DNA of 16,304 nucleotides from a virus. Both the position numbers and the translations under genes were made by a program. Shown in pieces: positions 2,896-3,706 of the stretch. Numbering within the stretch: the stretch's first letter is position 1; each line of letters opens with the position of its first letter. The stretch lies in the UHGV virus genome UHGV-0193351; one strand, given 5' to 3'. The notes beneath the pieces were generated by a model, which was not told the origin of the DNA, ran no database searches, and saw only the letters and a program-made list of their open reading frames with translations.

Positions 2896-3032
2896 AGCCT
2901 CACCTCCGCAGCGAACGGATGGCGTAGTTATAAGGGGAGCGAAAAAGAAAGAATGCGCGATTGCGCAATATGGTAACGTCAGGGTATTATCCACTGGCTG
3001 AATAGATCACTTCACGTTTTTTGTTCCTTGCC

Positions 3033-3060
3033 GCCCGTATCCATATGCGGGCTTTTTTTT
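3033..3060 (+). terminator. rho-independent terminator-like hairpin plus T8 (plus strand)
   Basis: GCCCGTAT-ccat-ATGCGGGC stem-loop followed by TTTTTTTT. Faces the minus-strand late operon, so it would stop antisense or convergent transcription. Confidence 0.5.
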
Positions 3061-3065
3061 GCATG

Positions 3066-3096
3066 TAAAAAGGCCCCAACACATGTGCGTGGGGCC
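3066..3096 (-). terminator. rho-independent terminator downstream of the tRNA cluster (minus strand)
   Basis: On the minus strand GGCCCCA-N11-TGGGGCC hairpin followed by TTTTTA. Lies back-to-back with the plus-strand terminator at 3033-3060. Confidence 0.5.
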
Positions 3097-3336
3097 TGAG
3101 AGTATACATGGTTTCAGTCAACTGCATGGTGCCGGGTGCCTCCCGGTGAATTCAGTACCAGCACCTGAATCCGCGATTATCCCATATACCTACTCGCTGA
3201 TTGCCCCTCCGCACAGGGGGATTCACCATGCCAGTTTCTTTTAACAAACTCCCCGCAAAACAGACAACTGTCAACCGTCTGAATTGTGAGACATTTAAAA
3301 AAAAGGCCCGCAAAAGCGAGCCGGGAAAAATAAGTC

Positions 3337-3413
3337 TGGCGCGTTGTACTGGATTCGAACCAGTGACCGATTGCTTAGAAGGCAATTGCTCTGTCCGGTT
3401 GAGCTAACAACGC
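3337..3413 (-). tRNA. argO: tRNA-Arg (anticodon UCU)
   Basis: Reverse complement folds as a cloverleaf: acceptor GCGTTGT/ACAACGC, D-arm GCTC...GAGC, anticodon stem ATTGC/GCAAT with loop CTTCTAA (anticodon TCT), T-loop TTCGAAT, discriminator G, encoded CCA. Symbol assigned only by analogy to the ileZ-argN-argO order of Stx phage 933W. Confidence 0.85.
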
Positions 3414-3426
3414 AGGGTACAGATAA

Positions 3427-3503
3427 TGGACCGCCATCGAGGACTCGAACCCCGCGCAACCAGCTTCGAAGGCTGGTGCTCTATCCTGATGAGCTAATGG
3501 CGG
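3427..3503 (-). tRNA. argN: tRNA-Arg (anticodon UCG)
   Basis: Reverse complement: acceptor CCGCCAT/ATGGCGG, anticodon stem CCAGC/GCTGG with loop CTTCGAA (anticodon TCG), T-loop TTCGAGT, encoded CCA. Symbol by positional analogy only. Confidence 0.8.
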
Positions 3504-3510
3504 TATGTGA

Positions 3511-3586
3511 TGGTGGCCCTTGCTGGATTTGAACCAGCGACCTGGCGATTATGAGTCGCTCGCTCTCACCTCTGAGCTAAAGGGCC
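3511..3586 (-). tRNA. ileZ: tRNA-Ile2 (anticodon CAU, lysidine type; Met not excluded)
   Basis: Reverse complement GGCCCTTTAGCTCAGAGGTGAGAGCGAGCGACTCATAATCGCCAGGTCGCTGGTTCAAATCCAGCAAGGGCCACCA is very close to E. coli ileX as I recall it; anticodon loop CTCATAA. First tRNA after Q, as ileZ is in 933W-like phages. Confidence 0.85.
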
Positions 3587-3706
3587 GGGCGCAGGATAAT
3601 AACGTTACGAAATCAATGTTGCAAGCATTCAAAAATCACCTGGTTAAAAATCACCCTTAGCTCCTCCACCAGCGCATTCACCATGTCTATCCGAGATAAG
3701 TGGCAC

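Follow-up and report, generated by a model that had tools for sequence, protein, structure and literature searches.

In this non-Stx lambdoid prophage, the DNA from the late antiterminator gene Q to the holin gene is most probably (roughly 0.85) a compact island of RNA genes within the late-operon leader. The stretch of DNA analysed, called the window here, is 16,304 nt long. Its architecture in this region is already known, namely a convergent pair of Hfq-binding sRNA genes and a moron site downstream of PR' (Tree et al. 2014). Since two described sRNA genes that face each other occupy the stretch from the tRNAs to the lysis genes, the layout is that of an ordinary prophage without a toxin. 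On the minus strand the order is PR'-tR', the tRNA operon, a first junction at 3294/3295, the sRNA pair, a second junction and then the holin gene, as follows.

3797-4492, minus strand: late antiterminator Q gene, bounding the region upstream (Pfam PF06323 Phage_antiter_Q, E = 2.3e-91)
3703-3813, minus strand: PR'-like promoter and tR'-like bidirectional terminator directly downstream of Q (promoter and terminator scan)
3596-3624, minus strand: candidate sigma-70 promoter of the tRNA operon (TTGCAA, 17-nt spacer, TATTAT; putative function)
3511-3586, minus strand: tRNA-Ile2, anticodon CAU, ileZ type (ARAGORN, called Met; Rfam tRNA 70.6 bits)
3427-3503, minus strand: tRNA-Arg, anticodon UCG, argN type (ARAGORN; Rfam tRNA 56.2 bits; aligned with argN of Stx2 phages)
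3337-3413, minus strand: tRNA-Arg, anticodon UCU, argO type, reading AGA/AGG (ARAGORN; Rfam tRNA 70.1 bits)
3297-3322, minus strand: intrinsic terminator at the end of the tRNA operon (GGCTCGCTTTTGCGGGCC followed by a T8 run)
3294-3295, no strand: unoccupied cargo (moron) junction, the point where Stx2 phages carry stx2AB
3061-3293, minus strand: STnc100/EcOnc05-type sRNA gene (Rfam RF02076 match at 3061-3260)
2961-3060, plus strand: convergent EcOnc08-type sRNA gene (promoter, homology to Sakai Sp4 EcOnc08, fold)
2933-2954, no strand: mosaic joint where the sRNA and holin modules meet, a second cargo site, unoccupied (ends of homology)
2680-2895, minus strand: holin S, P21 type, first gene of the lysis cassette (Pfam PF04971, E = 8.6e-36)

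The minus-strand sRNA gene matched the Rfam family STnc100 (RF02076) over the entire model (positions 1-206 of 206) with 140.2 bits, where the gathering score is 47 (E = 1.8e-31). The hairpin and U run at 3066-3096, listed as a minus-strand terminator by the initial annotation, proved to be the terminal hairpin of this match. The Northern probe published for Sakai EcOnc05 matched exactly at 3168-3202. The MFE fold contained the closing helix, the three internal hairpins and the terminator of the consensus (z = -2.63). Among 29 relatives, helices 1-4 were 94-100% paired, and helix 3 showed compensatory changes. These counts lean towards the window fold, because its own sequence supplied the structure. 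An RNAalifold consensus from a MAFFT alignment of the 29 STnc100 copies was rejected as partly wrong, having paired the G-rich core with the terminator. Upstream of the match, the module at 3261-3293 was conserved and carries TTGACA at 3269-3274. As a candidate promoter, this element is followed, after a 17-nt spacer, by no more than a weak -10 (GAGTTT), and a conserved TTTGTTAAAA box is an alternative candidate element. PGAP places a partial pseudo-CDS over the sRNA, on the wrong strand.

Homologues of the two sRNAs have been studied in other strains. EcOnc05 (about 222 nt), EcOnc27 and EcOnc08/21 gave Hfq CRAC peaks and Northern bands (PMC4104026, Table S2), and EDL933 expresses STnc100 copies, one of which was verified by Northern blot (PMC5331693). 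PasD and STnc100 have been handled as a single family with Q on one side and the holin gene on the other (bioRxiv 10.64898/2026.05.13.724894), convergent sRNA "dyads" were described in the segment that runs from the late promoter to the lysis genes (PMC4104026; PMC7873438), and overexpression of STnc100-family RNAs affected fimZ and espA (PMC12711010; PMC7873438). By analogy with these homologues, the gene on the late-gene strand would produce an sRNA of about 200 nt, which is a candidate for expression and Hfq association.

The plus-strand gene has a promoter of the form TTGCGC (-35, 2961-2966), an 18-nt spacer and TATTAT (-10, 2985-2990), and its predicted transcript runs from about 2996 to 3060 (about 65 nt). 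The plus-strand terminator claimed earlier was recovered (3033-3052 followed by a U8 run). It stands 5 nt from the 3' end of STnc100, and the two sRNA genes lie tail to tail. Among 114 related STnc100 loci, the window itself counted, we found 48 convergent genes, all of which had TTGCGC, the 18-nt spacer and TA(A/T)(A/T)AT in common; 18 had bodies of the AgvB/AsxR type and 30 of the EcOnc08 type. The reverse-facing terminator that adjoins STnc100 in relatives belongs to Rfam AgvB or AsxR. The window RNA itself was rejected as a member of either family: AgvB scored 11.9 bits (gathering score 56; E = 6.7), AsxR gave no Rfam match at E <= 10, and the 3' region of about 42 nt typical of AgvB/AsxR (..TATCTCATGC..GCCCGAACCCAYTCGGGC..) was absent from the window. 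It groups instead with the 30 "class B" loci (..TTCCTTGCC.. together with a different hairpin). Positions 2990-3060 (approximately) of the plus strand aligned with the Hfq peak EcOnc08 of Sakai Sp4 (1179938-1180010), on the strand opposite EcOnc05; the body is conserved, while the hairpin differs by compensated changes. The RNA folds at -22.7 kcal/mol (z = -5.2), and one stem pair of the hairpin is G-U on the plus strand, where the minus strand would have C-A. In most relatives the neighbours of the EcOnc08-type RNA are sialate O-acetylesterase genes.

The homologous transcript of Sakai measured about 271 nt on the Northern blot and had a second Hfq peak further upstream (PMC4104026, Table S2), so the 5' end of the plus-strand RNA may lie upstream of the predicted start. 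The holin leader replaces the Sakai-type upstream part of the convergent RNA in the window. A simple scan found 4 terminators where 2.3 +/- 1.7 were expected, which is not above chance, and the combined promoter and terminator counts did not clearly exceed the shuffled expectation and were not relied upon. It is homology and conservation in relatives that argue for the two sRNA terminators being real.

Two short segments of the plus-strand RNA are sense-strand copies of Spot 42: TGGCTGAATA at 2995-3004 equals nt 60-69 of spf, and ACTTCACGT at 3009-3017 equals nt 42-50. With these two segments the RNA could act as a partial mimic or competitor of this host catabolite-repression sRNA. The Sakai-type variant has TTACTTCACGT in common with the window RNA. 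Rfam returned no Spot_42 match to the plus-strand RNA at E <= 10, and the shared 9-11-mers are a lead only. We regard it as quite unlikely that the plus-strand RNA represents an uncharacterised EcOnc08-type branch serving the phage as a partial mimic or competitor of Spot 42. AgvB and AsxR mimic mRNA targets; what the window RNA carries instead are the Spot 42 segments.

Considering that parts of both genes were exchanged, they might be inert leftovers of recombination, one or both RNAs being unstable or untargeted. Sakai Sp4 EcOnc05 is near-identical to the 5' two-thirds of the window STnc100, up to about 3124, whereas the 3' third (about 3061-3124) differs from EcOnc05 and is closer to an EcOnc27-type junction; a seed in this tail, if located there, would differ from that of EcOnc05. 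The upstream part of the convergent RNA was swapped as well. Both the tail and terminator of STnc100 and the plus-strand hairpin are rare variants (3-4 of 114 loci), a mosaic joint lies at 2933-2954, and of 5426 complete E. coli genomes only 97 have the exact junction from STnc100 to the holin gene. Nevertheless, all 97 copies are at least 99% identical, which suggests an intact phage module in circulation. Both genes have kept promoter motifs, intact helices and strong terminators, and modular variation of the 3' tail within the STnc100 family is seen in expressed copies too. Thus, we consider inert leftovers very unlikely and retain the reading of an island of RNA genes.

The initial annotation had described the whole tRNA-to-holin interval of about 440 bp as the acceptor architecture of Stx phages without the toxin, or as a site that had lost its cargo. 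The toxin is indeed absent. The stx2AB cassette of the Stx2a phage WGPS6 (1333 bp) maps exactly between window positions 3293 and 3296, and these flanks, 1333 bp apart in survey locus L001, are contiguous in the window. The best tblastn hit of Stx2A/Stx2B over the whole window had E = 0.23, leaving no stx remnant, and the stxA and stxB genes that Stx-converting phages have between the tRNAs and the lysis cassette were not found there. The acceptor, however, is the single junction 3294/3295, which separates the argO terminator from the STnc100 module, rather than the interval as a whole. In other relatives this junction holds genes for a TerB-domain protein or a TolA_C lipoprotein, or unknown ORFs. 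The unoccupied state (75-78 bp spacing) was found in 36 of the 114 loci and is the commonest spacing class.

The second site is bounded by the ends of homology, EHEC-type similarity stopping at 2955 and essD/holin-type similarity at 2932. Its cargo is a nanS-p esterase gene in most relatives, or a TolA_C lipoprotein gene; tblastn detected no NanS remnant anywhere in the window. Among the 113 survey loci besides the window, STnc100 joins the holin gene directly in only two, L036 and L123. L123 is identical to the window over 2896-3340 (100%) and shares 97.7% over 1480-4847, the remainder being mosaic. The ordinary non-Stx phage PhiR49_2 from ECOR13 has the same layout at 99.6% identity, and the E. 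coli strains WP7-S18-ESBL-09 and AH19K002 are further examples of carriers of this element. Because the toxin-free state is the commonest class and the layout exists in non-Stx phages, there is no sign of cargo loss, and alignment to such phages is what the initial annotation had itself named as evidence against its idea.

Could the interval nonetheless be an empty or cargo-lost slot, its two terminators serving as insulators and no functional product being encoded? The lack of a conserved ORF in 2896-3336, which upholds that part of the initial annotation, would suit such a slot, as would the stx2AB inserts that adjoin this interval in Stx2 phages and the variable cargo at both junctions among relatives. 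Against it stand the full-length STnc100 match (140 bits), the exact match of the EcOnc05 probe, the conserved promoter ahead of the plus-strand terminator, and homologues that are Hfq-bound and Northern-detected, both discrete sRNAs having already been reported for Sakai Sp4. The window has no stx or nanS remnant, and the unoccupied spacing is the usual one. The interval is therefore not empty, and its back-to-back terminators mark where the two convergent sRNA genes end, rather than insulating a vacant site. The slot reading is highly improbable. A small protein (e.g., the 25-aa ORF MVNPPVRRGNQRVGIWDNRGFRCWY within STnc100) or a dual-function RNA is just as improbable: the only ATG ORF inside STnc100 begins in the conserved core, and some STnc100 copies of EDL933 had ribosome coverage values of 1.5-3.2 (PMC5331693), but beyond the first 9 residues, which were fixed by the search motif, its length (11-50 aa) and frame vary among the 114 relatives, which led us to reject it; it has no clear Shine-Dalgarno sequence, and conservation follows the RNA helices, compensatory changes included.

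The RNA island also includes the three minus-strand tRNAs, whose identities (Ile-CAU, Arg-UCG and Arg-UCU) were confirmed by ARAGORN and Rfam, apart from the Met call that ARAGORN made for the CAU tRNA. We rejected this call, since the tRNA aligned with K-12 ileX and not with metT or metU. It carries C4-G69 and C5-G68 as ileX does, where metT/metU have U4 and A5. The C4-G69 and C5-G68 pairs are the determinants of Ile2 tRNAs with respect to TilS. The counterpart was annotated as tRNA-Ile by PGAP (L123) and as ileZ1 in Sakai. By its sequence, then, this tRNA is of the Ile2 (lysidine) type, which would read AUA after modification. The argO-type tRNA differs at two positions from argO of Stx2 phages and is distinct from the host argU; to our knowledge, K-12 has no Arg tRNA with the anticodon UCG. 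The position and order claimed earlier, those of ileZ-argN-argO in Stx phages, held up, the window (3296-3651) and the tRNA block of WGPS6 being 92.4% identical over 356 bp. The candidate promoter lies 9 nt before ileZ inside this conserved block, and the terminator was kept in the Stx2a phage (just upstream of the stx2A promoter region) and in Sakai Sp4. The operon would thus be self-contained, with its own promoter, ileZ, argN, argO and its own terminator.

The suggestion that these tRNAs, which decode AUA (ileZ), CGA/CGG (argN) and AGA/AGG (argO), support the translation of rare codons was compared with codon usage in the ORFs of the window and in 40 K-12 core genes; window ORFs were used because L123 is mosaic outside 1480-4847. 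Per 1000 codons, the window and core values were 12.6 and 2.8 for ATA, 10.3 and 1.1 for AGA, 6.4 and 0.7 for AGG, 10.1 and 3.2 for CGA, and 11.5 and 3.8 for CGG. All five codons were 3-9 times more frequent in window genes, which fits the tRNA-supply idea as a correlation only. The genes at 550-1158 and 6291-7436 are examples with many AUA and AGA codons.

At the borders of the region, the L123 counterpart of Q is annotated as antitermination protein Q, and a relative's counterpart of holin S as class II holin. The PR'-like promoter has TTGCAA, a 17-nt spacer and TATATT (3813-3785), and the tR'-like terminator lies at 3710-3733. Together the two predict a short leader transcript (about 75 nt), and Rfam matches to isrK/isrJ at this site were all below threshold. 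From these features, family memberships, homologies and positions we infer the following for expression, promoter use, Hfq binding, targets and read-through. In the lysogen, the tRNAs and both sRNAs would be transcribed from their own promoters, and the sRNAs would act as Hfq-dependent base-pairing regulators of mRNAs or sRNAs of the host or prophage. Once the prophage is induced, Q-modified RNA polymerase that initiates at PR' would pass the tR', tRNA and STnc100 terminators and enter S-R-Rz. "Intergenic" DNA between phage tRNAs and lysis genes in lambdoid prophages should therefore not be taken as empty; here it holds two regulatory RNA genes of the Hfq type, neither of which is annotated in RefSeq.

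Compared with known systems, the tRNA cluster shares its three anticodons, their order and their strand with ileZ-argN-argO of Stx2-converting and other lambdoid phages (933W/Sp5, Sakai Sp4 and WGPS6), and likewise lies after Q/PR'-tR' and ahead of the lysis genes. The history of the cluster under these names is presumably as database annotations have it. The tRNA block of Sakai Sp4 is near-identical, including the terminator after argO. Unlike the WGPS6-type cluster, no stx genes follow the tRNAs of the window, and the similarity of its PF06323-type Q to the 933W-type Q of WGPS6 is no better than chance in tblastn. The minus-strand sRNA shares its helices, the full model and its genomic position with STnc100 (RF02076), that is EcOnc05/EcOnc06/EcOnc27 (sRNA103), the sister of PasD. 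The plus-strand RNA shares position, orientation and promoter with AgvB (RF02702), AsxR (RF02703), EcOnc03 and EcOnc08/21/42 (Tree et al. 2014), and like the AgvB/AsxR/EcOnc08 family it is short and ends in a strong terminator; its body is homologous to Sakai Sp4 EcOnc08, its hairpin being a distinct sub-variant. Tree et al. 2014 cite a moron site that lambdoid phages have downstream of PR'; as at that site, both junctions that flank the sRNA pair take diverse cargo in relatives. In the window both junctions are unoccupied. This cargo-free, minimal form allows the stx insertion point to be defined to the base (3294/3295) and can usefully serve as a reference when the two moron junctions around the sRNA pair are delimited.

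The genes flanking the tRNA-to-holin interval were those assumed by the initial annotation, a Q antiterminator gene and a P21-type holin gene. Its observation of three tRNA genes followed by back-to-back terminators was largely correct, whereas its interpretation of the interval as an empty slot or a site of lost cargo was only partly right. We found that the interval described as empty is occupied by a full-length match to STnc100, an sRNA family, facing a second sRNA gene on the plus strand.

Features of the tRNA-to-holin region (window coordinates)
2680-2895: P21-type holin gene, PF04971
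2961-2966, plus strand: -35 box of the plus-strand sRNA
2985-2990, plus strand: -10 box of the plus-strand sRNA
~2996, plus strand: predicted start of the plus-strand sRNA
3033-3052, U residues to 3060, plus strand: terminator of the plus-strand sRNA
3061-3260, minus strand: STnc100 (RF02076), Rfam at gathering threshold, 140.2 bits vs 47, E=1.8e-31, model positions 1-206 of 206
3337-3413, minus strand: tRNA-Arg, anticodon tct (ARAGORN; Rfam tRNA model 70.1 bits)
3427-3503, minus strand: tRNA-Arg, anticodon tcg (ARAGORN; Rfam tRNA model 56.2 bits)
3511-3586, minus strand: tRNA, anticodon cat, Ile2, Met per ARAGORN (ARAGORN; Rfam tRNA model 70.6 bits)
3797-4492: Q antiterminator gene, PF06323

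The closing helix, the terminator and the three internal hairpins of the consensus all appeared in the fold of minimum free energy of the window STnc100 (z=-2.6). Helices 1-4 were paired in 94-100% of cases in 29 diverse relatives, and both sides of helix 3 carried changes. The sole ATG ORF inside the RNA was not conserved among 114 relatives (11 to 50 aa, with changes of frame). A simple terminator scan detected the plus-strand terminator (3033-3052 plus a T8 run) and missed the minus-strand hairpin 3066-3096, which is the terminal stem-loop and U run of the Rfam match. Because the scan count did not exceed chance (4 found, 2.3 +/- 1.7 expected), the case for both terminators rests on homology. 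RNAs of this type are already described in the literature. Hfq-bound sRNAs occupy the same position in eight Sakai prophages, and EcOnc05 of Sakai prophage Sp4 is an RNA of ~222 nt with a published Northern probe (Tree et al. 2014, PMC4104026); this probe matched window 3168-3202 with zero mismatches. In EDL933, expression is reported for 11 copies of STnc100, with a Northern blot confirming one (PMC5331693), a copy lies 75 nt downstream of stx2B (PMC12370729), an overlap with EcOnc27/sRNA103 has been noted (PMC12711010), and STnc100 and PasD have been handled as a single family between Q and the holin gene (bioRxiv 10.64898/2026.05.13.724894).

A survey took in 120 viral contigs with the STnc100 core motif, of which 114 gave usable loci (L-numbers). 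The reverse-facing terminator adjoining STnc100 belonged, according to Rfam, to the anti-sRNA AgvB in L098 and L108 and to AsxR in L095. Bodies of AgvB/AsxR/EcOnc03 type were present in 18 of the 114 loci and a second type (..CACTTCACGTTTT..TTCCTTGCC.. and then a hairpin), to which the window copy belongs, in 30; the convergent gene was absent from the other 66. Ten aligned loci including the window had a common promoter (TTGCGC, 18-nt spacer, TAAAAT or TATTAT), and the hairpin varied in sequence between sub-variants with its stem kept. The stem of the window copy includes a pair that is G-U when read on the plus strand and would become C-A on the minus strand. The predicted RNA, 66 nt long, had a folding energy of -22.7 kcal/mol (z=-5.2). 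Its counterpart in Sakai Sp4 by alignment is the Hfq peak EcOnc08 (1179938-1180010), which lies on the other strand from EcOnc05. Membership of AgvB or AsxR was rejected (Rfam, 11.9 bits). The Sakai homologue gives a Northern band of ~271 nt and has a second, upstream Hfq peak, EcOnc21 (Tree et al. 2014, PMC4104026), so the predicted 5' end of the window RNA is uncertain.

Several further observations concern STnc100 in other genomes. A second, diverged copy lies 281 nt downstream of the first in L007, L013, L018, L028, L078, L049, L057 and L120 (165 and 136 bits in L013), and in L022 the two copies are separated by 1.9 kb. RefSeq/PGAP annotates neither sRNA and places opposite STnc100 a partial pseudo 'hypothetical protein' (window ~3083-3241, plus strand; 20188-20346 in L123, a near-identical annotated relative), which is a recurrent annotation artefact in E. 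coli genomes. HUS-predictive polymorphisms were reported at +90 and +103 after stx2B (PMC12711010). Counted on L001, the Stx2a phage WGPS6, they fall at ~3603-3616 (window ~3232-3246), in a conserved TTTGTTAAAA...CATGG box directly upstream of the STnc100 core; the box is a candidate for the -10 region or the 5' end of STnc100.

The stx insertion point was located by blastn. Window 3296-3651 matched L001 4998-5353 (92.4%) and window 3203-3293 matched L001 3575-3664 (83.5%), the 1333 bp separating the two blocks in L001 being stx2A, stx2B and short flanks. Since the blocks are contiguous in the window, the acceptor site is a single junction, 3294/3295, directly after the terminator of the tRNA operon and directly before the conserved upstream module of STnc100. 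The spacing between the tRNA block and STnc100 fell into several classes.

Spacing between tRNA block and STnc100, and content
75-78 bp: as in the window; commonest class, 36 of 114 loci including the window's own copy
~612-697 bp: unknown 108-aa ORF
768-828 bp: TerB-domain protein, PF05099
793 bp: TolA_C lipoprotein, PF06519
1406 bp: stx2AB
~1425 bp: two small ORFs plus TerB

At a second cargo junction, which follows the sRNA pair, genes for a nanS-p type esterase or a TolA_C lipoprotein are present in nearly all relatives; the window has only 165 bp between STnc100 and the holin gene, with a mosaic joint at 2933-2954. Among 5426 complete E. coli genomes, 97 had the exact STnc100-to-holin junction, each at least 99% identical, and non-Stx phages, PhiR49_2 among them, carry it too. 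The site showed no signs of the proposed loss of cargo, and the window contains no Stx or NanS remnant. Judging from the spacing classes, the junction data and the non-Stx occurrences, the window is therefore a well-known modular region in its minimal form, free of cargo.

The tRNA anticodons assigned by the initial annotation agreed with ARAGORN. In alignments, the CAU tRNA was close to ileX of K-12 and matched metT and metU, the elongator Met tRNAs, poorly; it has C4-G69 and C5-G68 where metT and metU carry U4 and A5. These two pairs direct lysidine formation, as is known from work on TilS. PGAP labels the corresponding position of the relative (100% identity over 2896-3340, 97.7% over 1480-4847) tRNA-Ile, and the Sakai record names it ileZ1. 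By these features it is an Ile2 tRNA, despite the Met label of ARAGORN. A promoter-like site (TTGCAA, 17-nt spacer, TATTAT; 3624-3596, minus strand) ends 9 nt upstream of ileZ and a terminator follows argO (3322-3297, minus strand), which suggests that ileZ-argN-argO is an autonomous operon. The idea that these tRNAs supply rare codons was consistent, as a correlation only, with codon counts in 27 long ORFs of the window itself and 40 K-12 core genes.

Rare codons per 1000 codons (window ORFs; K-12 core genes)
ATA: 12.6; 2.8
AGA: 10.3; 1.1
AGG: 6.4; 0.7
CGA: 10.1; 3.2
CGG: 11.5; 3.8

Enrichment was general throughout the window and strongest in AT-rich genes, gene 550-1158 (minus strand, DUF2441, GC 0.38) being extreme (ATA 34.7, AGA 19.8 per 1000 codons) and gene 6291-7436 likewise enriched. 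The DUF2441 gene is missing from L123, the best complete-genome match, which has a YfbU gene in its place. Over 1-16304 the alignment with L123 is mosaic, with 97.7% identity in 1480-4847 only and the remaining blocks 88-97% identical or absent. At 6291-8047 (minus strand) lies an AT-rich two-gene cassette (GC 0.40) that looks like a Rosmer-type anti-phage defence system carried by the prophage: its 381-aa protein, with HTH and M78-peptidase domains, gave a PADLOC match to RmrA (339 bits), and the 204-aa protein encoded upstream gave a weak one to RmrT (36.8 bits). Rfam matches to the sok antitoxin RNA (8364-8539, minus strand, 117 bits; a hok-like ORF is close by) and to DicF (16107-16158, plus strand, 76.7 bits) mark further regulatory RNAs of the prophage.

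At 3703-3813 (minus strand), a promoter resembling PR' and a bidirectional terminator resembling tR' would give rise to a predicted leader RNA of ~75 nt, an analogue of lambda 6S RNA and StxS; its similarity to isrK and isrJ was sub-threshold (22.7 and 24.5 bits). While the anatomy, family membership and homology of these elements were established by the present analysis, their expression, Hfq binding, targets and read-through are inferred from homologues. A two-state picture is the most likely. In the lysogen, the tRNAs and both sRNAs would each be transcribed from a promoter of their own. Once the prophage is induced, polymerase modified by Q and started at PR' would read past tR' and past the terminators of the tRNA operon and of STnc100, reaching S-R-Rz.

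The only lead going beyond the literature, and one of low probability, is a similarity to Spot 42. Plus-strand RNA segments 2995-3004 (TGGCTGAATA) and 3009-3017 (ACTTCACGT) equal nt 60-69 and 42-50 of E. coli spf in sense orientation, and the Sakai-type variant and Spot 42 have the 11-mer TTACTTCACGT in common. In shuffle tests of this single comparison, a 10-mer plus a 9-mer arose by chance at ~1e-5 with the candidate taken from 2991 (from the predicted start, 2996, both runs are 9-mers), and any run of at least 9 at 0.015, uncorrected for multiple sRNAs. Rfam gave no Spot_42 match.

Sakai Sp4 is nearly identical to the window from argO down to ~3124; upstream of the plus-strand RNA the window differs from Sakai, with the holin leader there. 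Tree et al. (2014, PMC4104026) reported sRNA genes in convergent pairs at the moron site, which lies 3' of PR'; a later review (PMC7873438) speaks of dyads, with the late promoter on one side and the lysis genes on the other. Thus, every element having been described previously, the architecture is already known.
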